Shown piece by piece: positions 6,316 through 63,284 of a stretch of 64,000 nt of DNA. The notes below the pieces were generated by a model that was given only the letters and a program-made list of their open reading frames with translations, had not been told where the DNA came from and did not search any database. The position numbers and the translations under genes were made by a program. Source of the stretch: Planctomycetota bacterium. GTDB taxonomy: Bacteria > Planctomycetota > UBA1135 > UBA2386. How positions within the stretch are numbered: position 1 is the first letter of the stretch; each line of letters begins with the position of its first letter. The DNA lies in assembly GCA_016713175.1 (NCBI GenBank), contig JADJPQ010000029.1, forward strand, positions 23,703 to 87,702, given 5' to 3'.

Positions 6316-7941
6316 TCAGCCGCCGAACGTCGTCAGGAGCCATGGCAACAGCCGATCCGTCGGCAGCCAATCGCCGGTGTCGGGCGGCAACAGCCCGGGC
6401 GCGCAACCCGAGCGCACGAACGGCAGGATCAGGTCGGCGCGGTTGCTCAGCACATGCAGAGGCACGTCGCGCGTGTGGTCTGGCACCGGCATCACGGCTC
6501 CGATCGGCGGCTGGTGGTCGCCGACGATCAGCACCAGCGACGGTCGCGTCAACAGGGCGACGAAACCGAACACCGCGCGCAGCGTGTACTCGGTCGTCTC
6601 GAGGTACGCCGACACCACTTCCGGATGACGCAGGAAATTCATCGGCCCGAGCGGTCGCGTCGTCGCCGGCGGCACGAACCATTGTTCGCGCGGCGCGCGC
6701 CAGTCGTCGAACAGCCGCGGCACGAACGTGAACGGCGCGTGCGCGGTGGCAGTGACGAACTCGACGAACAACGGCGGCCGGTCGGCCGCCGCGACCCGTT
6801 CCAGCAACACGCGCAGCGAGTACTGATCCGGCGGTCCCCAACCGTGATCGGGGCCGAGGAACGCCAATTGCGGCCGGAACAACTCGTCGTGGAAACCGAA
6901 GAACCTGGCACCCTCGGGCCACGGCGTCGGCATGCCCCCCTGAACGGTCAGGCATCGCCAACCTGCCGCCGCCAGCCGCGCCGGCAACGGCCGCAGCGAC
7001 GACAACAGCAGCCGTTCCCATGTCCGTTGGTCCGGCACCGGCATGCCGCACAGCATCTGCATGTGCGCCAGCCACGAGGCGCCGCCGTAGATCGACGGAC
7101 GCACCCACCGCGTCGCCGAACCGAATCCGGCCGCCGCCAGCCGGGCGTCCTCGGCGCGCAGCAGTTCGCCGAGGCGCTCGCCCAGCACCGGCTGCCGGAA
7201 CGGCGCCCGGCCGTACGATTCGGCGAACACGACGAACACATCGGTACCGCGGAGCTTGCCCAGGTCCTGCGGCAGCGCCGCCAACGTCGCCTCGGCCTGT
7301 CCGATGGCGGTGTCGATCCGTTGCGCGATCGTGCCGGGCGCCAGCCGCTCGCCGACCCAGGCCTGGACGTGGCCGACCAGAGCGAGCAATGCCGACCCCC
7401 GCCAGGCCCATGGGGTCAGGCCCGCCGACGCCGCCAGCATGCGCTGCATCGGCCACACGGCCAGCAGCAGCAGTACGATCGCACCGATCCGCGGTTGTGC
7501 GGCCGCGCGCAGCACCGTGCCGAACGACCAACGCAGCGCCACGACGAGCCCGAGCAGCAGCAGCCCGGCCAGCGTCAGCCAACCGACGCGGGGCGCCGTG
7601 GCCAGATCGTGCAGCAGCAGGTAGGTGAGGTCATCGATCAGCTCGACATCGTCGAGCCGGAACGGCCGATCGAAGCCGAGCTGGATCGCGGCATACGCGG
7701 CCCGGGCCGCGGCAGCCAGCAACAGACCCAGCGTGCAGGCCCAGGCGATGCCCCGGCCAAAGCCGCGCCGCGCCGCCACGGCCACGCCGACGGCCAGCAG
7801 ACCGAGCAGGTCGGCGGCAGGCTGCCGCAACGCCCTGCCGGCTGGCTCGGGCTCCCACGCCATCGGCCACGCCGTGGCGACATGCAGGCATCCGAGCGCC
7901 AACAGCCAACGCCAGACCGGCACGGTCCTCGACTCAGCCAT
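6316..7941 (-). CDS. Membrane-anchored sulfatase/LtaS-like enzyme (alkaline-phosphatase superfamily)
   Basis: N-terminal hydrophobic helices, then a sulfatase-type core (GTDVFVVFAESYG, LIVGDHQPP). ATG at 7941 overlaps the upstream stop by 8 nt (ATGGCTGA). TTG at 7974 is an alternative start. Confidence 0.65.
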   Translation of the reverse strand: MAESRTVPVWRWLLALGCLHVATAWPMAWEPEPAGRALRQPAADLLGLLAVGVAVAARRGFGRGIAWACTLGLLLAAAARAAYAAIQLGFDRPFRLDDVELIDDLTYLLLHDLATAPRVGWLTLAGLLLLGLVVALRWSFGTVLRAAAQPRIGAIVLLLLAVWPMQRMLAASAGLTPWAWRGSALLALVGHVQAWVGERLAPGTIAQRIDTAIGQAEATLAALPQDLGKLRGTDVFVVFAESYGRAPFRQPVLGERLGELLRAEDARLAAAGFGSATRWVRPSIYGGASWLAHMQMLCGMPVPDQRTWERLLLSSLRPLPARLAAAGWRCLTVQGGMPTPWPEGARFFGFHDELFRPQLAFLGPDHGWGPPDQYSLRVLLERVAAADRPPLFVEFVTATAHAPFTFVPRLFDDWRAPREQWFVPPATTRPLGPMNFLRHPEVVSAYLETTEYTLRAVFGFVALLTRPSLVLIVGDHQPPIGAVMPVPDHTRDVPLHVLSNRADLILPFVRSGCAPGLLPPDTGDWLPTDRLLPWLLTTFGG

Positions 7942-9556
7942 CGTCGCGCTCCAGTTCGATCCGCCCGTTCGCAACCACGACCCGACCCGGCAGCGGCTGC
8001 AGTTGTTGCGAGCGAACCGAGAAGCCGACGACGCGATGGCGTCTGCCCGCCGGCATGGCGCCGACCGGAACGGTCAGGCGGAAGGCCACGATCTTGCCGC
8101 CGGACTCGAACTCGGGCAGCGCCACCGCGATCACCCTTGCGGTCGGCTCGTCCGCCAGCAGGAACACCAGGTCCGGCGCCGCTCGCCAACGCGTCGCATG
8201 CACGGTACCGACCACCTGATCGCCATCGATCCGAACGAGCGTGCCGACCGGCAACGCATGCGACGGCGGCGGCGCCAACGACGTCACCGCCGGCAGCCGC
8301 GGCAGCAGTCCGAGCGATCGCAGGGCGGGGATCGCCTGCACGTTGCCCACCGGCACAGGCACGTCGTTGGCCAGGTGTTCGGCGACCGCCACCGCGGCCT
8401 CGCCGCGCCGCAGCACGGCGGCCTGCAGCTTCAGTACTTCGAAGCCGCGGTGCCAATCCTGCACGCCGAGAACGACGGCGCCAGCGACCAACGCCGTCAG
8501 CACCGAGCGCGACAGACAGGCGACGAACACCCCGACCATGCCCGGGGCCAGCAGCGCACCCCCCGGACCGAGTTCGCGCATGGCGGCCGCCGGCAGTTCC
8601 AAGCTACCCCAGCGCTCGGCGTCGAGCACCGCGGCGAACACCGGCCAGGCCACCAGGGCATGGCAGGTCGGCACCAGGCCGGGCGCGGTCGGCGCCCGGA
8701 CCGCGAACGGCCCCATCAGCACGCACAACCACGCCAGCACACCGGCCGCCATCGCGTCCGCATTCAGGTTCGGCAGCAGGTCGGGCAGCCGTTCACCCGT
8801 CGCACGCAGCAGCGCCAGCACCGTCGCTCCAGGCGCCGCCAGCAGCATGGCCAACACCCCCGACGCGGTGTGCGTCGGCGGTGCCGCCGATACCGTCGCG
8901 AGGATGCCGGCCACGGCAACGCAGGCCAAGGCACCAAAACCGTTCGGCTGCCCCGAACGCCGACACCATCGCAGCACGGGAAACGCCAGGGCCAGCCATA
9001 CCGCCGCCCCATGCATGTGGCAGAACGGTGCCAGGAACGCCGCACCGGTCGCCAGCAACAGACATCCGCCTCCAGGCCGACGACCACACAGTGCGTGCAA
9101 CCCGACCAGCAGGCACGCCGTCGCGGCAAAGGCGCCCACCCGTTCGCCGAGCAGCCAGGCGCCGGCGTACGCGGGCGAGAACACCGCCAGCGCCAGCACG
9201 GCCGCCGCGAGACCGGAGAATCCCGGCGCGATCAACCCGACCCGTCGGAGCAGCCGCACCAACAGCAACGTGATGACGACGCCCGCGCCCCAATTGGCCA
9301 GCGCCGCGAGCCCGAGGTCACCGCCCGCCGCCGTCACCGCCAGTCGGTGCAACACGCGCGCGAGCCAATGCGCCGGTCCCTCGCCGAAGTCGCCGAGGTC
9401 CGCCCAGGTGTGCACCGACGGCGACTCCTGCAGCCGCAGACGCCAGGCCACCGGCTCCGGGACCCGGCTGGCCCACGCCAACGTCCACACCAAAGGCAAC
9501 ACCAGCAGCGGAATCGCCACCGCCCAGGGAAGCCAGTTGCGCGCCCGTGAAGTCAT
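7934..9556 (-). CDS. Polytopic inner-membrane protein with soluble C-terminal domain, function unknown
   Basis: About 12 hydrophobic segments (NWLPWAVAIPLLVLPLVWTLAW, GVVITLLLVRLL, LAAAVLALAVFSPAYAGAWLL and others) plus a C-terminus of about 140 aa. ATG at 9556 forms an ATGA overlap with the upstream methyltransferase stop. Confidence 0.6.
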   Translation of the reverse strand: MTSRARNWLPWAVAIPLLVLPLVWTLAWASRVPEPVAWRLRLQESPSVHTWADLGDFGEGPAHWLARVLHRLAVTAAGGDLGLAALANWGAGVVITLLLVRLLRRVGLIAPGFSGLAAAVLALAVFSPAYAGAWLLGERVGAFAATACLLVGLHALCGRRPGGGCLLLATGAAFLAPFCHMHGAAVWLALAFPVLRWCRRSGQPNGFGALACVAVAGILATVSAAPPTHTASGVLAMLLAAPGATVLALLRATGERLPDLLPNLNADAMAAGVLAWLCVLMGPFAVRAPTAPGLVPTCHALVAWPVFAAVLDAERWGSLELPAAAMRELGPGGALLAPGMVGVFVACLSRSVLTALVAGAVVLGVQDWHRGFEVLKLQAAVLRRGEAAVAVAEHLANDVPVPVGNVQAIPALRSLGLLPRLPAVTSLAPPPSHALPVGTLVRIDGDQVVGTVHATRWRAAPDLVFLLADEPTARVIAVALPEFESGGKIVAFRLTVPVGAMPAGRRHRVVGFSVRSQQLQPLPGRVVVANGRIELERDDG

Positions 9557-10404
9557 GCGGTCCCTTGCCGACGGAACGTCAGCGCGAGGTAGCGCACGAG
9601 GCCACGGCCGTACAGGTTCTCGAGCTGCAAGCCGCCGGCGAACGCCCGCAGCAGCGCGCGCTGCGATGTGGTCGGCGTGACGTTCGCCAAGGCCGACAGC
9701 GCCGCCGCCGCGACGCGGCACCACCACCGTGGCCGGCGCGGCACCTGGTCGGTCAGGTCATGGACCGCGGTCGCCGACAAGCCGACCATCGCCGCCGCCG
9801 CGCGCAGTTCGGCGGCGGTGCGCAGGGTCGGTGAATGCCAGGCGCCAGCAAGGCGGCGGAATCCGCGTGCGGTGGTGCCATCGACGCGCAGATCGTCGAC
9901 GACGACGAACGTGCCGCCCGGTCGCAGCGCCGTGCCGATCGCCGCCAGCGCTGCCGGCCAGTCGGCCAGATGGCACAACGATTCGACGGCGATCACCAGG
10001 TCGAACGCCGCGACCGGCAAGGCCGCGAGGCCCTGTTCGCGGAACTCGCAGCGATCCGCCAGCCGCAGTGCTGCCGCCTGTTCGCGAGCGCGCAGGACCT
10101 GGAACGGCGACGGTGTGATGCCGACGTAGCGCCCGGGGCACCTCGCCGCCCAGTGCAACACCGTCGCGCCGAAGCCGCACCCGACATCGAGCACTGCCGG
10201 AGCCGTTGGCGTGCCGGCGTACACCAGGAGCCAGTCGTGCAGGCCGGTCACCCCCGCCGCGGGACCATCGCCTCGAGGAGCGGCAAGCCGCTTGTGCAGT
10301 TCGAGTCCTTGGCCGGCCGGACGGTTGCCGCGTCGCCGCCAGACATGGCGGGCCAGGGCTTCATACATCGCCGCTTGCGCGTTCGCGTCGTGACCTGGCG
10401 TCAT
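9553..10404 (-). CDS. Class I SAM-dependent methyltransferase
   Basis: Motif I VLDVGCGFGATVL, then DLVIAVESLCHL and RPGGTFVVVD. ATGA start/stop overlap at 10401-10404. Confidence 0.8.
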   Translation of the reverse strand: MTPGHDANAQAAMYEALARHVWRRRGNRPAGQGLELHKRLAAPRGDGPAAGVTGLHDWLLVYAGTPTAPAVLDVGCGFGATVLHWAARCPGRYVGITPSPFQVLRAREQAAALRLADRCEFREQGLAALPVAAFDLVIAVESLCHLADWPAALAAIGTALRPGGTFVVVDDLRVDGTTARGFRRLAGAWHSPTLRTAAELRAAAAMVGLSATAVHDLTDQVPRRPRWWCRVAAAALSALANVTPTTSQRALLRAFAGGLQLENLYGRGLVRYLALTFRRQGTA

Positions 10405-11720
10405 CGCGCGTTCCTCAGCACGAACAGGAACTCGTTGCACCAGCGCAGCGGCAACAGGCTGCCGGCGACCGGCTCGTCCTGGCCCGGGCGACGCCGCCGC
10501 CACCACCGTCGCAGCCGTTGCCGCGGCCACTGGTCGGGCACGACGGTGTCGATCGCGAATCCGGCGGCGAGGAACCGCTGCTGCCATTGCGACAGCGTAG
10601 CCGCATCCTGATGGCCCGCCACCTCGCGCCGGCCCAGCAATTCGCGCCACAGCCGCCAGACGAGCGTGTCGGCATTGCGGACGAGGAACACGAACCGGGC
10701 CTCTGGATGCGCGACTCGCCGCATTTCAGCGAGTGCGCGCGGGCGATCGAGGAACCGCTCCAGCGAACCGATGCAGGTCACCGCATCGAACGTCGCATCG
10801 GCGAACGGCAGTTCGAGCGCGGAGCCGGCAACCAGTCGCGCCGCCGGCGCGTTCTCGGCGGCCAGCTGCAGGGCGGCGCGCGACAGGTCGATGCCAATGG
10901 CAATGGCGCCACGTTCGGCGCCCGCACGCAGCAGATGACCGGGCCCACAGGCAACGTCGAGCAGCGTCATGCCGGGCCGGGCACCCAGCAGTTGCAGGTA
11001 GATCGGGTAGGCGTCGTACGGTCGCACGTAGTGCAAGCCGCGCCGGCGGTAGGTCGCATCGAACCACGCGGCAACCGTCGGCTCATCGACGGCGTCGTCG
11101 CGATCGTGGGTCAGCAGGTAGCGCGGCACGGATCGGCGGTAGCGGCGATAGGGCTCGCCGAGCCGCGCGTCCAGATGGTCTTCCTCGAGCAGCACGCGGC
11201 GATGCATGTTGACGGCCCAGACCACCATGCCGACCCAGACCAGTGCACTCGGCAACACCAGCGCCAGCCCGAGCCAGCACAACGCCATGCCACACAGGCC
11301 GGGATTACGCGACCAGCGGAACAACCCATCGGCCGCGGGCACGGCGGCGCGCCGCTGCCGCAGTTGCAGCACCGAGGTGGCCGTCACGAGGCGGCCCAGC
11401 AGGAACAGCACGACGCCGGCCCAGGTGACGCCGACCGACGGCGCGATCACGACACCAGACCAGGCATGCGGGACACCGACCGCGACCAGCGCGGGCGCCA
11501 GGAACGCGACGACCCCGAACACCGTCGGCAACAACCACAGCAGCCCGCGGCGCCACAGCGGTGCCATCCGCACCGCCAACAGCCGTTCGCCGGTGGCGCG
11601 CGTGTCCGCATCCGGCGCGAACAACTGCCAGGTCGATGCCTCGCTCGGGATCGGGAAGCACGTGATCTCGACCAACAGCGACAGATAGCCGAGCAGCAGC
11701 AGCACGTCCGCCAGGGTCAC
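10401..11720 (-). CDS. Fusion of an ICMT/PEMT-superfamily membrane methyltransferase with a class I SAM methyltransferase
   Basis: N-terminal half has TM helices plus FRWSRNPGLCGMALCWLGLAL and EEDHLDARLGEPYRRYRRSVPRYL (ICMT/PEMT-type signature). C-terminal half has LLDVACGPGHLL and FDAVTCIGSLERF. GTG at 11720 was chosen because of the GTGA overlap with the upstream stop. The rest of the 769-aa track ORF overlaps the next gene out of frame. Confidence 0.7.
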   Translation of the reverse strand: MTLADVLLLLGYLSLLVEITCFPIPSEASTWQLFAPDADTRATGERLLAVRMAPLWRRGLLWLLPTVFGVVAFLAPALVAVGVPHAWSGVVIAPSVGVTWAGVVLFLLGRLVTATSVLQLRQRRAAVPAADGLFRWSRNPGLCGMALCWLGLALVLPSALVWVGMVVWAVNMHRRVLLEEDHLDARLGEPYRRYRRSVPRYLLTHDRDDAVDEPTVAAWFDATYRRRGLHYVRPYDAYPIYLQLLGARPGMTLLDVACGPGHLLRAGAERGAIAIGIDLSRAALQLAAENAPAARLVAGSALELPFADATFDAVTCIGSLERFLDRPRALAEMRRVAHPEARFVFLVRNADTLVWRLWRELLGRREVAGHQDAATLSQWQQRFLAAGFAIDTVVPDQWPRQRLRRWWRRRRPGQDEPVAGSLLPLRWCNEFLFVLRNAR

Positions 11721-12421
11721 GCGGTCCTCCGGGTCAGCAACCAGCGGGCATCGGCGCTGAACGACCAGACCAGCAGCACGACCGCCACGGCGGTGGCCGC
11801 ATCGGCGACGACCCGCGGCATCGCCGGACACAGCGCCAGCAGCAACGCCACCATCACCGCGGCGCAAACGCGCCGACCACGCGAGTTGTCGCCATCCTGC
11901 GGTTTCGGCTCGTGCGCCGGGCGCCGGGCCAACGTCATCGCCAGCACGAACCACCAGCGCAGCGCGGGCAACACCAGCACCCAGCGCGCACCACCGATCG
12001 CAACGACCGCGAGCGCCAGACCGAACACGGTGAACTGATCGGTCTCCATGTCGAGGATCGCGCCAACTTCGGAGCCGCCGAACCGCCGAGCCAGAGCGCC
12101 ATCGAGCAGATCGGCCGCCACGACAACCAGGCCAAGCGACCACCACCACCAGTCCGATCCAGGCGCCGCCGGCAGCAGAGCCAGCAGGACACAAAGCAGG
12201 ACCAGGCGGCCGGCGGTGGCACCGTTCGCCGCCGTCGTCCGGGCCTCGAGCAGCAGCCACAGCCAGGCCCACGACGCCGCGATCCCGAACGCGATCCAGT
12301 TGCCGCCGTGTGCCAGGGCCTGCGGCCAGACCGCAGTCGCTCCCAGGACGCCAACACCGACAACCGCCTGCACGCGCAACCAGCGTGTCAGTGCGGCGAC
12401 CGGAAGCGTCAGCGTCGGCAT
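11717..12421 (-). CDS. CDP-alcohol phosphatidyltransferase family protein
   Basis: DLLDGALARRFGGSEVGAILDMETDQF matches D-x2-D-G-x2-A-R-x8-G-x3-D-x3-D. Multiple hydrophobic helices. First gene of the minus-strand operon. Confidence 0.8.
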   Translation of the reverse strand: MPTLTLPVAALTRWLRVQAVVGVGVLGATAVWPQALAHGGNWIAFGIAASWAWLWLLLEARTTAANGATAGRLVLLCVLLALLPAAPGSDWWWWSLGLVVVAADLLDGALARRFGGSEVGAILDMETDQFTVFGLALAVVAIGGARWVLVLPALRWWFVLAMTLARRPAHEPKPQDGDNSRGRRVCAAVMVALLLALCPAMPRVVADAATAVAVVLLVWSFSADARWLLTRRTA

Positions 12422-56590: not shown

Positions 56591-56830
56591 TCAACACAGG
56601 AAAGCGACCTCGACATGCCAGCGGTCGGCGGCGACCGGCATCGGTGCCCGCAAAGCGGCATCCTGGCCCACCAACCCGGTGCACAAGAGAAGGCTGGCCC
56701 ACTTGTCGAACATGCAGCGCAGATGTCGTGACGCCGAACGGACCTTGCGCACGGAATCGTCGGGATCGAACACTGTCGTCCAGGCCCATGCGACTGCGCC
56801 CTGTTCGGTCGGGGTGGCCATGCGGTGCAT
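56591..56830 (-). CDS. Possible small protein (79 aa)
   Basis: Its stop lies 3 nt before the next ATG (56587). GC3 is about 77% by hand count. No homology recognised. Confidence 0.3.
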   Translation of the reverse strand: MHRMATPTEQGAVAWAWTTVFDPDDSVRKVRSASRHLRCMFDKWASLLLCTGLVGQDAALRAPMPVAADRWHVEVAFLC

Positions 56831-56920
56831 GCCCCATGGATGTCGCGTTGGCGTCACCGCCTTGCACCGGACGCGAAGTGTGTTCCGATCCAAGGCTCCC
56901 CCCTGCCCACGGAGCCTTCC

Positions 56921-58711
56921 ATGCTGGTACCGAGTCTGCTCGCCCCCACCCTGTCCGCACTGGCCACGGCCTTGCCGGGCGACATCGATCCCGCCCTGCA
57001 AGCGGTGCTCGCCAACCTGAAGCCGAACGAACAGACGACGGTGTTCGTCTACCTGAGGGATCAGGTGCCGCTGACCGACACGGTCGCTGCCCTGGACCGG
57101 ATGAACGCCACGCGGCAGTTCCGCCACTGGCTGGTCGTCAGTTCGCTGCAGGACCTGGCCGCCGGCACGCAGCCGCCGGTCAAGCGCGTGCTCGACGAAC
57201 TCGACGCCATCGGCGAGGTCAGCATGGTGACGCCGTTCTGGATCTTCAACGGCTTCGCGGTCCGCGGCACCCGCGGTGCGATCGAGCGGCTGGCGCTGCT
57301 GCCGGCGGTCGGCCAGATCGTCTGGGCCGGCTCCGACCAGCCCGGCACCCAGGACGCCATCGACATCGAAGAACTCGCGCCGGCGCCGCTGCCGCTGCCG
57401 GTGCCCGAAACCGGCCTGACCGAGTGCAAGGCCGACTTCCTGTGGAACCTCGGCTTCACCGGCACCAGCGCGCTGGTCGCCAACGTCGACACCGGTGTCG
57501 ACGGCAATCATCCGGCTCTCCGTTCGCGCTGGCGCGGTCTGCTGCCCGGGGTGCCGGCGAGTGCCGCGTGGCACGACGTGATCACCAACACGACGTTCCC
57601 GGTCGGTCGCGGCAGCCATGGCACGCACACGATGGGCACGATCTGCGGCGACGATGGGCTCGGCAACCAGATCGGCATGGCGCCCGGCGCCCGCTGGATT
57701 GCCAGCAATCCGATCGATGCGTCGGGCACCCGCGCGCAGAAGAACGTCTGGTACAACCAGGGCATCCAGTGGATGGCCGATCCGGACGGCAATCCGCTGA
57801 CCGTCGACGACGTGCCGGATGTCTGCAGCAACAGCTGGGGCGTGCGCGATGCGGCCAATGGCGTCGGTCCGTGTTCGCCGGTGTTCTACGCGTCGCTGGA
57901 CGCCGCCGAAGCGAGCACCGTGGTGTTCTGCTGGTCGGCCGGCAACGAGGGTGCCACCGGCCCGCGCGTGCCTGCTGATCGGGTCGCGTCGCCGACCAAC
58001 ACGTTCACCGTCGGTGCGCTGGAGCCAGGCAGCCTGGTGATCGCCAGCTACAGCAGCCGTGGCCCGAGCACCTGCGCGGCGACTGGCAACATCAAGCCGG
58101 AAGTCTCGGCTCGCGGCTCGTCGGTCCGGAGTTCGGTGCCGGGCGGCGGCTACTCGCTGCTGTCGGGCACGTCGATGGCCTGCCCGCACGTCGCTGGCGC
58201 GGTGGCGCTGCTGCGCGATGTCTGGCCGGAGATCTCGGTCACCCGCGCCAAGACGTTGCTGATGGACACCGCGGTCGACCTCGGCACCGCCGGTGAGGAC
58301 AACACGTTCGGTTTCGGGCGCATCGATCTGCAACGCGCCTACAATCAACTGATCGCGGAACGGCCGGTCGTCGCGGTGTCGGCCATGGGCACGCGGCAGG
58401 TCATCCGACCGGGACAGACGGCGTGGACGCACGTCGCGCTGTCGAGTTGGAGCCCCAATGCGGAGACCGTGACCCTGGCGCTCGAACTGTGGATCGACGG
58501 TGGCCCAACGGGTCTCTATTTCCTGGCACCGACGACGATCACGATCCCCGCGGGCTTCCACAACCGCACCACACCGTTCGCGATCCCGTTCCCGATTCCG
58601 GCGAACATCGACCCGCAGTTCCTGAACCGGCCGATCGAGGTTCGGGCGTCGGCGGTGCAGGGCATGACCGAGATCTCCGCTGCCGGCTATCGGTTCGTGA
58701 TCCAGCCGTAA
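56921..58711 (+). CDS. Subtilisin-like (S8) serine protease with propeptide
   Basis: Catalytic triad contexts VANVDTGVD, HGTHTMGT and GTSMACPHVAG. GGAG lies 6 nt before the ATG at 56921. Confidence 0.85.
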   Translation: MLVPSLLAPTLSALATALPGDIDPALQAVLANLKPNEQTTVFVYLRDQVPLTDTVAALDRMNATRQFRHWLVVSSLQDLAAGTQPPVKRVLDELDAIGEVSMVTPFWIFNGFAVRGTRGAIERLALLPAVGQIVWAGSDQPGTQDAIDIEELAPAPLPLPVPETGLTECKADFLWNLGFTGTSALVANVDTGVDGNHPALRSRWRGLLPGVPASAAWHDVITNTTFPVGRGSHGTHTMGTICGDDGLGNQIGMAPGARWIASNPIDASGTRAQKNVWYNQGIQWMADPDGNPLTVDDVPDVCSNSWGVRDAANGVGPCSPVFYASLDAAEASTVVFCWSAGNEGATGPRVPADRVASPTNTFTVGALEPGSLVIASYSSRGPSTCAATGNIKPEVSARGSSVRSSVPGGGYSLLSGTSMACPHVAGAVALLRDVWPEISVTRAKTLLMDTAVDLGTAGEDNTFGFGRIDLQRAYNQLIAERPVVAVSAMGTRQVIRPGQTAWTHVALSSWSPNAETVTLALELWIDGGPTGLYFLAPTTITIPAGFHNRTTPFAIPFPIPANIDPQFLNRPIEVRASAVQGMTEISAAGYRFVIQP

Positions 58712-58714
58712 CGT

Positions 58715-60406
58715 TCAGCGGCCATGCAGCCACGCGGTCGCGATCGCCCGCAGGCGCTCGACGCGCTCGCGGTCGGTCGCGGCCAGATCGGACTGTTCTG
58801 CGGGATCGGCCAGCAGGTCGAACAGCTGGTCGCGGCCGGTGGTCACGGTGTGCACCAGCTTCCAGCACCCATCGCGGACGCCGACCTGCAAGTCGCCCCA
58901 GTCGGTGAAGAAGCACACCGGCCGCGACGCCGCGTCCTGCAGCAGAGAACGGCCCTGATGGCCTGGATCGGCGGCGACGCCGAGCAGGTCGAGCACCGTC
59001 GGCGCGACGTCGAGGTGGCAACACGGCACGGTCCAGCGCGGCAGCCCCGAGGTCAGGCCAGGCGCATGCAGCAGCCACGGCACGCGGACGTTCTCGTCGT
59101 ACAGCGCGAACGTGTGGCCGACATTGCCGTCGTGCTCGCCGAACGCCTGGCCGTGATCGCCGATCACGCACAGCAGCAGTTCTGCCGCCGGTCGACGGCG
59201 ACAGAGTTCCTGCCACAGCGTGCGCAGATTGCGGTCGCACCAATGCAGCGCATTGCGGTAGCAGTCGAGTTCGTTGTCGTACGGGAACGGCCCACCCGGC
59301 GGACTCGCATACGGATGGTGGCCGGCGATCGGCAGCCAGGCGGCGACGAACGGCGCGTTCGCCGGCAGCGTGTCGACCCACGCGAGCAACGCGGCCACTG
59401 CGGACTCTTCGTCGATGCCGAAGCTCGATTCGCGTTCGCCGCTGATCGTCGCGGCATCGGCGAGATGGTGGAAGCCTCCCGGGGCGAGCACGTGCTCCAT
59501 GCCCAGGAACGCGAACCTGCCGGCGTGGACCAGCGCGCTGCGGTAGCCCTTGGGCGCCAACGCCTCCGCCAACGACGGCACGGCGAGCTCGCGGTACTGT
59601 TCCGGCCGGCGGTCTGGCGCCGGCGCGACGGCATGCAGGATCGCCAATTGTCCGAGGATGCTCTCGGGATAGACACAGTACGCATCGGTGGCGAGGAGCG
59701 AATCGGCGGCCAGCCCGGTCAGGAACGGCATCGGGTCCTGGTCGGCGCCGTAGCTGCGCAGGAACCGCGGCGCCGCCGACTCGAGCACGACGAACACCAC
59801 CGAACGACTGCGCGCGGCGCCCCGCAACGGCGACAACGGCGATGGGGCTGAAGTCACGGGTGCGAGCGGCGGTGCCGCGTCCGGCAGCGACCGCGGCATC
59901 GCCGACCGGATCAGTTCGAGCAGCGCGTTGCGATGCGCCGGACTCGCCGGCGGCGGCAACCACCACCAGGCGGCCAACGACGCCGCGGCCAGTGCGATGG
60001 CGAACCGGCACCGACGGTGGGATACGGCGCCCGGACTGCCGACGCGCAGCAGTGCGACACCACCGATCGCCAGCACCAGCACCGCCGGCCAGAGGATCTC
60101 GATCCGCAGGTAGTGCCGCATCGAGTCCCCCATGGCCTCATCGGCGCCCTGCAGCATCGGCAGCGCCAGCGGACGTCCGATCGCGACGACCAGCGCCGCG
60201 TTGGCAGCGGTCCATGCGACCAACACTGCGAACAGGATCCGCATGCAGACTCGCGGCAACCACGGTGCGAGCGCCACCAGGACCAGGGCCACGACGACAT
60301 CGTCGGCGAGCACCAGCGGCAACTCGGCGATCGGCGGCGGCGGCACGTGCAGCAGCGCCGCGGCTTTGGCCACGAGCAGTACCGTCAGCACCGCGATCCC
60401 GTTCAT
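58715..60406 (-). CDS. Membrane-anchored sulfatase/LtaS-like enzyme (alkaline-phosphatase superfamily)
   Basis: 4-5 N-terminal TM helices, then SVVFVVLESAAPRFL and VIGDHGQAFGEH...ALYDENVRVP. Confidence 0.75.
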   Translation of the reverse strand: MNGIAVLTVLLVAKAAALLHVPPPPIAELPLVLADDVVVALVLVALAPWLPRVCMRILFAVLVAWTAANAALVVAIGRPLALPMLQGADEAMGDSMRHYLRIEILWPAVLVLAIGGVALLRVGSPGAVSHRRCRFAIALAAASLAAWWWLPPPASPAHRNALLELIRSAMPRSLPDAAPPLAPVTSAPSPLSPLRGAARSRSVVFVVLESAAPRFLRSYGADQDPMPFLTGLAADSLLATDAYCVYPESILGQLAILHAVAPAPDRRPEQYRELAVPSLAEALAPKGYRSALVHAGRFAFLGMEHVLAPGGFHHLADAATISGERESSFGIDEESAVAALLAWVDTLPANAPFVAAWLPIAGHHPYASPPGGPFPYDNELDCYRNALHWCDRNLRTLWQELCRRRPAAELLLCVIGDHGQAFGEHDGNVGHTFALYDENVRVPWLLHAPGLTSGLPRWTVPCCHLDVAPTVLDLLGVAADPGHQGRSLLQDAASRPVCFFTDWGDLQVGVRDGCWKLVHTVTTGRDQLFDLLADPAEQSDLAATDRERVERLRAIATAWLHGR

Positions 60407-60412
60407 CCTCGC

Positions 60413-61216
60413 CTACTTCCTCGCCGCCTCGGCCTGGCCGACCACGAACATCGCCTCGGCCACCGGTGTCCGTTCGGCCTTCAGGTGCAGGACGTGCACA
60501 CGCCAGACGATCTTCTCGCCGGCTTGCAGCGCCATCTCGGTGGTCCACTTCGTGGTGCCCTGGCCGGGCTCCACCGGCGGGCTGGCGAAGCGCTCGCCGT
60601 CGCCGACCTGCACTTCGAAGACGTAGCGCAGGTCCTTCTGGTCCGCGAGGCAGTTCTTGCACTCGAACGTCACGTCGCGCCCCGGCCGGCGATTGGCACT
60701 GGCCTTGGGTCCGTTGGCATCGAGCGGCGAAAGCGGCGTCGGCAACAGCCGCAGTTCGCGAACGGGACCGTAGTCGAGGGTCCCGACCTCGCGGATTCCC
60801 CAGCCGAGCGGGTAGGGCGCTGGCTCGGTGGCTGCCTGACCGGCCACGATCACGCGCGGCGGATGTTCGTGCTGCTCGTAGCGCGAACCGAATGCGACGA
60901 TCCGACCGGTGCCGGCGACCTTGGCAAGATCACGCCATTCGGCGATCGATTGGTCTTTCTTGTCGCTTGCGGTGAAGGTCAACCGACCGCGGACCGGCGA
61001 ACGGTAGTAATCGCCGCCATGGCCGACGGCGAGGCAGAACGCCCCTTCGATCTCGACGCGATCGGGGTTGTTGGCGTCGGGCAGCAGCGCCACCCTGTCG
61101 AGCAGCGCGTAGACGCCAGCCGGATCGCTTGGCAGCGCCGGCGGCTCAGCGGGCGACCACAGAGTCGGCAACAACAGGAGCGGGAGCAGCGGGAACGAGT
61201 GCATCATCGACATCAC
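60413..61216 (-). CDS. Secreted hypothetical protein
   Basis: Signal peptide MMSMMHSFPLLPLLLLPTLWSPA. Spaced 6 nt and 8 nt from its operon neighbours. Confidence 0.6.
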   Translation of the reverse strand: MMSMMHSFPLLPLLLLPTLWSPAEPPALPSDPAGVYALLDRVALLPDANNPDRVEIEGAFCLAVGHGGDYYRSPVRGRLTFTASDKKDQSIAEWRDLAKVAGTGRIVAFGSRYEQHEHPPRVIVAGQAATEPAPYPLGWGIREVGTLDYGPVRELRLLPTPLSPLDANGPKASANRRPGRDVTFECKNCLADQKDLRYVFEVQVGDGERFASPPVEPGQGTTKWTTEMALQAGEKIVWRVHVLHLKAERTPVAEAMFVVGQAEAARK

Positions 61217-61224
61217 CTCGAAGA

Positions 61225-62184
61225 TCAGGACGTCGCACCAGCCGCGGCGTTAGCGACGCCTGGCAGGCGGGCGAGAATCGTCTCGCCGGCGCGGACCCGC
61301 TGGCCCGGTCGCGCGACCAGTTGCAGACCCGGTACGTCCGGCACGAACACCTCGGTGCGCGAACCGAACTTGATCAGGCCGAAACGCTGACCGGCAGCCA
61401 CCCGTTCGCCGGTGCGCAACACGCAGCAGATCCGCTGCGCCGCGGGCCCGGCGATCTGGCGGACGACGACCGGCAGGCCGTCGTCGGTGCGCAGCCAGGT
61501 CAGCAGCTGTTCGTTGGCGTCGGTCTTGCCGATCCGATACGTCGCCCGTCGCGCGCCGGGCCGGTAGTCGAAGCCGATCGCCTCGCCAGCAACCGGGGCG
61601 CGATTGACGTGCACGTCGAACAGCGACAAGAACACGCCAAGCCGCACCGCGGGACCGGCAAAGAACGGACACGCCGCCTCGCGGCGCACGTCGTCGAGCA
61701 CGCCATCGGCCGCCGCCAACACCGCATCCGGATCGGCCGGCGGGCACCGTTCCGGGTCGCGGAAGAACCACACCGTGAACGCCAGCGGCAGCAGTGCCAC
61801 CGGCAGCAACCACCACGACCAGATCGACGCGACGCCACCGGCAGCAGCCGAGACCAGAGCCGCCAGCAGCAGTTCGGGACGCGCGAGCCGCACCAGGCCG
61901 AGGCCATCGGCGAACAGCACCGGTTCGCGACCGTCTGGCGGCCGCAGCCCGCAGACATTGCGGACCCAACGCAAATCGGCGGCCTCGACGACATCATGCG
62001 GACAGTCCGCGCACTCGCCGCGCAGCGCAGCGCGAGCGGCAGCCAATCGCTGCGGCGCCAGCGAACGACGGAGCCACCGCCGGATCCGCCGAACGAACAG
62101 CGCCAGCTGCGCCGCCGGTCCGATGCCCGGCTGCACGCAGCGCACGTGCGGCGGCCAGCCGGATGGCAACACCGCGCGGGTCAT
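61225..62184 (-). CDS. psd: Phosphatidylserine decarboxylase-related protein (short Asd type) with an N-terminal extension of about 95 aa
   Basis: FFRDPER...VHVNRAP..G...GLIKFGSRTEVF (self-cleavage GS(T) motif). ATG at 62184 forms an ATGA overlap with the upstream stop. Whether the N-terminal extension is translated is uncertain. Confidence 0.7.
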   Translation of the reverse strand: MTRAVLPSGWPPHVRCVQPGIGPAAQLALFVRRIRRWLRRSLAPQRLAAARAALRGECADCPHDVVEAADLRWVRNVCGLRPPDGREPVLFADGLGLVRLARPELLLAALVSAAAGGVASIWSWWLLPVALLPLAFTVWFFRDPERCPPADPDAVLAAADGVLDDVRREAACPFFAGPAVRLGVFLSLFDVHVNRAPVAGEAIGFDYRPGARRATYRIGKTDANEQLLTWLRTDDGLPVVVRQIAGPAAQRICCVLRTGERVAAGQRFGLIKFGSRTEVFVPDVPGLQLVARPGQRVRAGETILARLPGVANAAAGATS

Positions 62185-63284
62185 CCGCAGACCAGCGCCG
62201 GCTCGCCGACGACGAGATTCAGCCGCTTGCCGAGCCACCAGCCGACGACCTGGCCGCGACCGCGCGGTCGCCACAGCCAATCGTGGATCAACGTCAGCGG
62301 CGCCGGTGGACGTCGGTAGCAGCGCTCGCGATCACCATGCAGCGCCAGCGGCACCACCACCAGATCCGCCGGCACCGAGTCCCCGGGCACGAAAGTGCCG
62401 ACCTGCGTCGTGACTCCCGGGGGCAACCATGGCAGTGCAGCGCGCAGGTGCGAGGCGTCGGCATCCACGATCACGATCGCCGCGTCGGGCCATAGCTCGC
62501 GCAGCAGGATCGCCGAACGTGGAAACAGACCGCCGCCGATGATCACCACCCGATGCGGCACCGGCACGCCGGCGAGCACCTCCTGCAAGGCCTCGCGATG
62601 CGCCGCCAGCACGGCGCGACGAAGCCACGCGAACCTGGGCAGCAACCGCTCCAGCAGGCACAACCACGGCCGATCGAGCCAGCGCAGCACCGGCGGCCAG
62701 CGGCTCGTCCGGGCATCGACGGCACGGCGCGCCGGCAGGTCGCGGAAGTGGACGCGCGGCGCGCGGTGGTGTTCGACGTGATAACCGTCGTTCAAGAACA
62801 GCGTGTTCCACCACGCCGCGTGGATGCTGGTCGTGCCGCCGCGGTGCTCGCCACGGCCCTGCAACGCGCACAAGAGCTGGCCGACGCCGAAGCCCGGCAA
62901 CCATGCCGCCAGGAACCACGTCGGCTGCAGCCACGCCCACGCCACCCACATCGCCAGCGCCGCCAACACTTCGCGAGCCAATCCCCGTTCGCGCCGCCAG
63001 TGCCAACGCACATCGCGATGATGCGCCAGATGCCACTGCCGCCACAACCGCTGCGGGAAGCCGAGCAGCAACGTCAGGCCCAGGGAGAACCCATCGTCGA
63101 GCCTCCTGGTGGCGAAGAACCGCCGATGCGTGAACTGATGGGCGATGGTGTTGGCGTTCCACCACAGCAGCACCGCGACGACCCACCACGGCGGCTGCGC
63201 CAGCAACACGCCGGCATGGACCGCGGTCAACGCGACCGGCAGGCGGTCACGGCGGTCGCGCAGGAATGTGACCCGGGAGGTCAT
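62181..63284 (-). CDS. Fatty-acid desaturase/hydroxylase-family membrane protein fused to a Rossmann-like C-terminal domain
   Basis: Three His boxes: HQFTH, HLAHH and HVEHH. C-terminal part has RVVIIGGGLFPRSAILLRELWPDAAIVIVDAD. ATG at 63284. Confidence 0.7.
   Translation of the reverse strand: MTSRVTFLRDRRDRLPVALTAVHAGVLLAQPPWWVVAVLLWWNANTIAHQFTHRRFFATRRLDDGFSLGLTLLLGFPQRLWRQWHLAHHRDVRWHWRRERGLAREVLAALAMWVAWAWLQPTWFLAAWLPGFGVGQLLCALQGRGEHRGGTTSIHAAWWNTLFLNDGYHVEHHRAPRVHFRDLPARRAVDARTSRWPPVLRWLDRPWLCLLERLLPRFAWLRRAVLAAHREALQEVLAGVPVPHRVVIIGGGLFPRSAILLRELWPDAAIVIVDADASHLRAALPWLPPGVTTQVGTFVPGDSVPADLVVVPLALHGDRERCYRRPPAPLTLIHDWLWRPRGRGQVVGWWLGKRLNLVVGEPALVCG

Follow-up and report, generated by a model that had tools for sequence, protein, structure and literature searches.

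Enzymes of the LtaS and EptA types decorate bacterial envelopes and shape resistance to antibiotics and to the immune system, and the donor is, to our knowledge, an ordinary membrane lipid in every characterised case. LtaS, LtaP and VP1736 (PDB 2w8d, 4uop, 4uoo and 3lxq) contain a multi-helix N-terminal anchor followed by an extracytoplasmic alkaline-phosphatase-fold domain with a conserved Glu (LES), a nucleophile position and a conserved Asp-His pair (GDH). The donor of LtaS is phosphatidylglycerol, and VP1736 is a Vibrio LtaS-like protein which we take to be uncharacterised. The phosphoethanolamine transferases have the same architecture, and EptA/MCR-1, EptC, PptA and BcsG take the head group of phosphatidylethanolamine (PE) and add it to lipid A, glycans, cellulose or proteins. 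An enzyme of this build was found at the end of a four-gene operon (58715-63284, minus strand) in the stretch of DNA analysed here, a window of 64,000 nucleotides with 70% G+C from contig JADJPQ010000029.1 (C29) of an uncultured planctomycete metagenome-assembled genome (MAG; GCA_016713175.1, 7.9 Mb, 90% complete). DNA near-identical to the window was present in activated-sludge metagenomes of several studies.

The other enzymes of the operon also have described counterparts. The His-box di-iron enzymes, namely acyl-lipid desaturases, AlkB and carotenoid ketolases, contain HxxxH, HxxHH and HxxHH boxes. BelI/CysG, phosphoethanolamine N-methyltransferase and MtNAS contain a seven-strand Rossmann-like core with a glycine-rich loop after strand 1, followed by the presence of an acidic residue after strand 2, and act with S-adenosylmethionine (SAM). 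The archaeal and Bacillus-like short-type phosphatidylserine decarboxylases (Psd) contain Asp, His and Gly-Ser self-cleavage motifs. The operon is real and in part a new form of a lipid/envelope module, so far uncharacterised, that occurs in several phyla; the original prediction, made from the letters of the window, was confirmed at the level of the genes and rejected where it drew a pathway across two loci. The recurrent presence of a Psd gene beside the module suggests that it acts on PE.

The operon and the three-gene cassette

The four genes are a real operon of membrane-lipid-type enzymes and were found to be arranged as follows.

62181-63284, minus strand: des-MT, 367 aa; residues ~1-215 are a four-helix His-box di-iron membrane domain and residues ~243-360 a minimal class I SAM-methyltransferase fold
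61225-62184, minus strand: psd, 319 aa; short-type phosphatidylserine decarboxylase, extra copy
60413-61216, minus strand: sec, 267 aa; exported protein that matches no known family
58715-60406, minus strand: sulf, 563 aa; LtaS-like alkaline-phosphatase-superfamily enzyme

The tight spacing noted earlier was borne out, as the ATGA overlap of des-MT and psd was read directly at 62181-62184 and the later gaps were 8 nt and 6 nt by the coordinates of the open reading frames (ORFs). A longer ORF of 441 aa for des-MT (start 63506) was rejected because the homologues start at or after the ATG at 63284 and a divergent thioesterase gene occupies the upstream stretch.

The genes sec, des-MT and sulf were found to recur as a cassette. 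In the following, G000 is the genome of the window, other G numbers are further genomes, L numbers are loci and P0217 is a protein of a metagenomic database. When one genome per species was scanned, 28 loci were obtained, in most of which the three genes were adjacent on one strand; the source records were labelled as Acidobacteriota, Tepidisphaeraceae, Myxococcota, Chloroflexota, Verrucomicrobia and Heliobacteriaceae; the Chloroflexota, Verrucomicrobia and Heliobacteriaceae records are single MAGs and may reflect binning errors. The trio was also present in four further planctomycete genomes, and all-against-all clustering of the cassette neighbourhoods found nothing else widely conserved around it. 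The protein P0217 (971 aa) contained an FA_desaturase domain, the SAM-fold domain and a Sulfatase domain in one chain and is possibly a natural des-sulf fusion, the alternative being a missed stop or a frameshift.

The cassette was found in 4 of 41 close relatives, in 7 of 401 sampled Planctomycetota and in 2 of 301 genomes sampled to represent the phylum to which the Bryobacterales MAG belongs, and the idea of a common acidobacterial trait was dropped because the cassette was rare where sampled. A tree of des-MT was made with 35 rows, leaving out L037, L040 and G104 (split, partial or C-terminal-only) and a relic in G021. The planctomycete sequences were found in several places of this tree, with an unresolved backbone, which fits a horizontal spread of the cassette. 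The des-MT proteins of L035 (a Limnocylindrales MAG) and L029 (a Heliobacteriaceae MAG) were nested in or next to acidobacterial clades with full support, through either a recent transfer or misbinned contigs. A Myxococcales cassette (L039:13034-15619, plus strand) contained a second sulfatase-family gene directly after the first, and a Ser/Thr kinase-WD40 gene and an FHA gene were found upstream of it.

Psd was found to be a recurrent add-on of this cassette, which is a new observation here, and four arrangements were seen. In the first, which belongs to family f1, the gene lies inside the operon in G000 and G083, and the des proteins of these two genomes are sisters in the tree. G083 is the sole other genome with the des-psd-sec-sulf order and contained des and psd followed by an opposite-strand methyltransferase gene, sec and sulf; the inserted gene (L057:12430-12900, minus strand) codes for an ordinary class I methyltransferase (Methyltransf_25/11). 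The relic in G021 of the same family (L049:7273-7569, G021:C45) contained des residues 35-92 with His boxes 1 and 2, joined in frame to psd residues ~172-207 and followed by masked or garbled sequence, and resembles the remains of a des-psd unit that has decayed in a third genus.

In the second arrangement, the sole Psd gene of the genome was the divergent neighbour of des (G028 and G036). In the third, des was followed by psd in two Myxococcota MAGs, one of which has psd as a second copy followed by a sulfatase-family gene. The fourth was found in G104 (L058:6386-7943, G104:C192, 58% G+C), where a stand-alone SAM-fold domain is encoded immediately upstream of the sole Psd, which is of the long type. 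The stand-alone protein (263-aa ORF) contained one hydrophobic helix and no His boxes, and the two-gene unit was flanked by unrelated RecQ, DEAD-box helicase and ferritin genes. Since a genome of several thousand genes contains one or two for Psd, four separate adjacencies among ~40 loci are far above chance, by our own estimate and not by a formal test. The linkage points to the product or the substrate of Psd, an aminophospholipid and most simply PE, as the likely target of the module and in particular of its SAM-fold domain.

The four proteins

The N-terminal half of des-MT was found to match PF00487 (1e-13, 51.8 bits against a cut-off of 29.7) and to contain the three His boxes HQFTH, HLAHH and HVEHH that had been read from the sequence. 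The histidines of the boxes (H49/H53, H85/H88/H89 and H169/H172/H173) were invariant in 40 homologues, together with E146/H147. An AlphaFold2 (AF2) model had a predicted local distance difference test score (pLDDT) of 91, and the best structural match of the N-terminal half was FtAlkB (VIA, Z 12.7, 191 residues, root mean square deviation (rmsd) 2.8). The boxes are those of the His-box di-iron enzymes, from which des-MT differs in a much shorter domain (~215 aa), an extra invariant EH pair and a permanent SAM-fold fusion. No NCBIfam assignment or equivalog match was found for des-MT, and acyl-chain desaturation is a putative activity.

The C-terminal region, described earlier as Rossmann-like, proved to be real and conserved; a minimal class I SAM-methyltransferase fold is the more fitting description. 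It contained invariant GGGLFPR (250-256), D307 and H334/W336 in the 40 homologues, and D274 and D335 were conserved in at least 90% of them. The core strands of the AF2 model were 245-249, 269-274, 292-295, 308-311, 330-336, 343-348 and 353-359. By Foldseek, BelI/CysG SAM methyltransferases came out on top (E 2e-6 to SAM-bound BelI), and a profile search of PDB sequences also found SAM-bound BelI (E 0.005); in the BelI alignment GGGLFPR lies on motif I (GAGTGLL) and D274 on the motif II Asp. The domain shares the seven-strand core, the glycine-rich loop and the acidic residue of the class I SAM transferases and is unlike them in its ~120-aa core without a substrate-binding cap. It matched just 280 representative clusters of 1.84 billion, and almost all of these showed the fused architecture too, whole or in fragments.

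By VIA, nicotianamine-synthase-like and methyltransferase folds were found at Z ~11-12, the top match being the nicotianamine-synthase-like 3fpe (Z 11.7, 165 residues, rmsd 3.9), with many ordinary methyltransferases less than 1 Z unit away; by this tie, methyl is a putative choice for the group transferred from SAM. A 3-amino-3-carboxypropyl group could instead be moved by the SAM-fold domain to a lipid head group and decarboxylated by the Psd-type pyruvoyl enzyme to an aminopropyl-type head group, which sulf would pass on. Such a route is considered very unlikely. It is favoured by 3fpe as the best single structural match, by the glycine-rich loop GGGLFPR, which is atypical of methyltransferases, and by the cassette Psd being an extra, divergent copy in G000, G083 and one Myxococcales MAG. 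However, many ordinary methyltransferases score almost as high as 3fpe, methyltransferases rank first by Foldseek, and the linked Psd is the sole Psd in G028, G036 and G104, so that it must also carry out ordinary phosphatidylserine (PS) decarboxylation there.

The concern that the fusion might be a frameshift or assembly artefact was excluded, as 762 homologues were found at E<=0.001, the best 120 of which had a query coverage of 88-100% and an identity of 46-72%. The public annotation of the homologues was, at best, 'fatty acid desaturase'.

The second gene was identified as a short-type Psd with the cleavage site FGSRTE, as predicted, and matched PF02666 (8e-33, 114 bits against a cut-off of 22). 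The FGSRTE, ADG and DVHVNRAP motifs were conserved in an alignment with 11 planctomycete Psd proteins, and to judge from these residues the enzyme appears catalytically intact. It has the self-cleavage motifs of the short-type enzymes and differs from them in scoring below all equivalog cut-offs of the NCBIfam Psd models (matches up to 7e-51), in its N-terminal extension of ~95 aa and in its place as a second copy inside a cassette. The extension, which had been noticed earlier, is real and conserved in other planctomycete Psd proteins; it is shared with the G083 Psd (55% identity overall) and with Psd proteins of another planctomycete family (33-37% identity, residues 7-307), and no Pfam match was found for it at E<=10. 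The protein contained two hydrophobic helices. A different, housekeeping Psd is encoded in the same genome (G000:C29:208830-209819) and was present in 40 of 41 relatives, and the operon Psd is a second copy beside it.

The protein sulf was found to match PF00884 (3e-24, residues 203-477), in agreement with its description as LtaS/sulfatase-like. The N-terminal anchor contained about five hydrophobic segments (3-21, 29-47, 43-61, 57-75 and 102-120) followed by the extracytoplasmic catalytic domain. The LES, YPES, AGHHPY and GDHG motifs were invariant in 21 homologues, and the key residues are E209, S249 at the nucleophile position, D417 and H418. In a profile search against the PDB the three best full-domain matches were VP1736, LtaP and LtaS (5e-25 to 4e-24), and S249 fell on the catalytic Thr in the GKTSD motif of LtaS and on a Ser of VP1736. 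A formylglycine sulfatase identity was rejected, as C/S-x-P-x-R is missing and S249 of YPES is followed by I-L-G-Q, without the Pro and the Arg. The solved sulfatases matched essentially over the C-terminal half only (~343-574). Because LtaS, LtaP and VP1736 rank first over the whole domain and the formylglycine motif is missing, sulf is on its sequence an LtaS-type transferase-like enzyme with a Ser nucleophile, and not a sulfatase; head-group transfer from a lipid to an acceptor is its putative activity. It differs from LtaS in its Ser nucleophile, present also in VP1736, in its presence in diderm soil bacteria, for which synthesis of lipoteichoic acid is not known, and in being always paired with the His-box/SAM-fold fusion and a small exported protein. 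The donor may also differ, as the gene linkage of sulf points to PE and not to the phosphatidylglycerol of LtaS.

An account by which the four genes are unrelated ordinary neighbours, coding for a fatty-acid desaturase, a Psd, a hypothetical protein and a sulfate-ester hydrolase, would agree with the public annotation of the fusion, with the match of sulf to Pfam Sulfatase and with the resemblance of its C-terminal half to choline sulfatases. It is, however, barely credible against the synteny conserved across phyla, the invariant SAM-fold fusion, the alignment of the Glu and the Ser of sulf to the metal ligand and the catalytic Thr of LtaS, the N-terminal multi-helix membrane anchor of sulf and the existence of the des-sulf fusion protein.

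The third gene had been described as an unknown secreted protein, and accordingly no Pfam (even at E<=10) or NCBIfam match was found for sec. It was found to contain a signal peptide and a conserved domain of ~130 aa, both common to 26 relatives, followed by the presence of a planctomycete-specific fn3/Ig-like C-terminal domain. In an alignment of 27 sequences S30, G58 and G77 were invariant and the SDPxGxY, RGYLY, EWxDL and GFGSR motifs were conserved, S30 being at the predicted mature N-terminus. Most relatives have 144-183 aa, and the planctomycete forms carry the added fn3-like domain. The AF2 model of sec had a pLDDT of 80, and residues 178-263 resembled fn3 (Z ~8). Foldseek and VIA searches with the full model found matches solely to this C-terminal domain and none to the conserved N-terminal domain. 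In the ESM Atlas, searches made for this analysis found unnamed clusters only, all below 0.85. A complex prediction of sulf 185-563 with sec 28-160 gave scores of 0.00, 0.51 and 0.00, which are evidence neither way.

Surroundings of the operon and the first methyltransferase locus

The upstream edge of the operon is formed by a divergent hotdog (4HBT) thioesterase gene and an Abhydrolase_11 gene (63145-64370 in window numbering, plus strand; L009:6848-8073), and the long minus-strand ORFs across this stretch are not genes. The downstream edge is formed by a convergent subtilase (Peptidase_S8) gene (56825-58711, plus strand). A Peptidase_S8 gene was also found beside the G018 cassette, between sec and sulf (L010:11741-14770, plus strand), and none was seen next to the cassette in other phyla. 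No copy of the GTGAC-N15-CTGCTG promoter motif was found upstream of the operon. The RNA-Seq libraries of one activated-sludge study contained short exact contigs of des, psd and sulf at low depth, and none of these bridges any gene junction of the operon; the contigs are compatible with transcription of the operon, and DNA carry-over is a possible alternative source.

A first locus at 6316-12421 of the window was found to contain, as predicted, a CDP-OH_P_transf gene, a gene with PEMT and methyltransferase halves and a further methyltransferase. The PEMT and class I methyltransferase halves, which are fused in the window, matched separately in many relatives, with adjacent but distinct coordinates, and either the fusion or the ORF call may be peculiar to the genome of the window. 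An exact match to the GTGAC-N15-CTGCTG motif with a spacer of 16 nt was found in or at coding sequence (11694-11720, minus strand), at the junction of the CDP-alcohol transferase and PEMT/methyltransferase genes. The original prediction had regarded sulf as paralogous to an enzyme of the first locus, which did not hold, as BLASTP against two unassigned first-locus proteins gave E 1.5 and 0.54.

It had also been proposed that the operon complements this locus, the operon Psd, the CDP-alcohol transferase and three methyltransferase domains (9.5-12.4 kb) making up one pathway from PS to PE and on to methyl-PE or phosphatidylcholine over two loci. Both loci do stand in one window, the first holds the CDP-OH_P_transf and methyltransferase genes named above, and the Psd looks active by its motifs. 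The co-occurrence across genomes came out against the proposal. Among 40 relatives, both loci were found in 1, the first locus only in 11, the cassette only in 2 and neither in 26. The PEMT/methyltransferase gene was strong (E<=1e-67) in 12 of the 40, and just one of these, G018, contained the cassette, while the cassette-bearing G028 and G036 matched the first locus weakly (~1e-15, a generic methyltransferase). No match to the first locus at E<=1e-20 came up in G083 or in four further planctomycetes that carry the cassette (91-96% complete), so that seven of eight other genomes with the cassette gave no first locus. No first-locus gene was found within 8 kb of the fusion gene in the 28 loci of other phyla. 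The conserved housekeeping Psd elsewhere in the genome, which can serve ordinary PE synthesis, stands against the proposal as well. A single pathway over the two loci is thus highly improbable, and the first locus is a common, apparently vertically inherited feature of the family. The unsupported two-locus reconstruction is thereby removed from the annotation of this genome.

Proposed mechanism and its meaning

From the gene identities, the domain folds, the conservation of catalytic residues and of the cassette and the recurrent Psd linkage observed above, we infer that PE is the substrate, what each step does chemically, which way the group is transferred and what sec does. The operon is read as one lineage's own version of a conserved three-gene envelope-lipid module of scattered, horizontal distribution, a version that recruited a dedicated second Psd, tailors a PE-type donor and transfers its head group, and this reading is given an even chance of being right. 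The extra Psd would raise or localise the supply of PE. The fusion protein would then tailor a PE-type aminophospholipid on the cytoplasmic face, the His-box domain by an O2-dependent oxidation (desaturation or hydroxylation) and the C-terminal domain by a SAM-dependent alkylation, most simply a methylation. The lipid would flip, and Ser249 of sulf would take the phospho-head group and hand it over to an extracytoplasmic acceptor, with sec as a partner of the transfer step or as the acceptor itself.

The Psd linkage together with an LtaS-type enzyme favours this order of events, in which a donor lipid is tailored and its head group is then transferred. Several observations weigh on the other side. 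By sequence, the catalytic domain of sulf is nearer to the phosphatidylglycerol-using glycerol-phosphate transferases LtaS, LtaP and VP1736, and no EptA, MCR or BcsG was found among the best 60 PDB profile matches. The PE-donor chemistry of the phosphoethanolamine transferases would make sense of the Psd linkage, but phosphoethanolamine transfer by sulf is at most a candidate reaction. About 30 of the 40 cassette loci contained no Psd nearby, so PE could be merely one of several feedstocks; this, with the affinity of sulf to LtaS rather than to the EptA type, calls for caution. The SAM-fold domain belongs to no Pfam family, without a match even at E<=10, and ties structurally with a nicotianamine-synthase-like aminocarboxypropyl transferase, so methyl transfer is putative. 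A literature search found no paper on this gene combination or linking any member to a product.

The cassette might instead remodel the lipid itself without any transfer. The fusion protein would make a PE-specific acyl change, a desaturation followed by methylation of the double bond, of the kind that yields cyclopropane or mid-chain methyl fatty acids, and sulf and sec would trim the product or take part in its turnover in the outer leaflet. A desaturase-type His-box domain fused to a SAM-fold domain is a logical pair for double-bond methylation, and the Psd linkage suits an acyl modification specific to a head group, PE- or PG-specific (phosphatidylglycerol-specific) acyl desaturases being known. 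The SAM-fold domain is, however, outside the CMAS/cyclopropane-synthase family, and remodelling does not explain why an LtaS-type partner with nucleophile and metal site intact is obligatory or why a des-sulf fusion protein exists. We regard this alternative as rather unlikely.

Returning to tailoring followed by head-group transfer, a more specific form of it may be considered by analogy with PptA and EptC, to which a dedicated tailoring of the donor lipid would be added. In such a 'phosphoform' system of protein or envelope, of a kind not described before, the fusion enzyme would oxidise and SAM-alkylate PE at its head group or near it, and sulf would pass the unusual phospho-head group to sec, perhaps at the invariant Ser30 beside the signal-peptide cleavage site, or to an envelope glycan. 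This form is thought unlikely to be the right one.

In the operon described here, an LtaS-like enzyme is firmly tied to a small exported protein and to a fusion protein predicted to oxidise lipids and to use SAM, and this combination is spread over several phyla of uncultured bacteria from soil and sludge. That Psd was recruited repeatedly is a first concrete clue to the substrate, namely PE, by which an anonymous module becomes testable.

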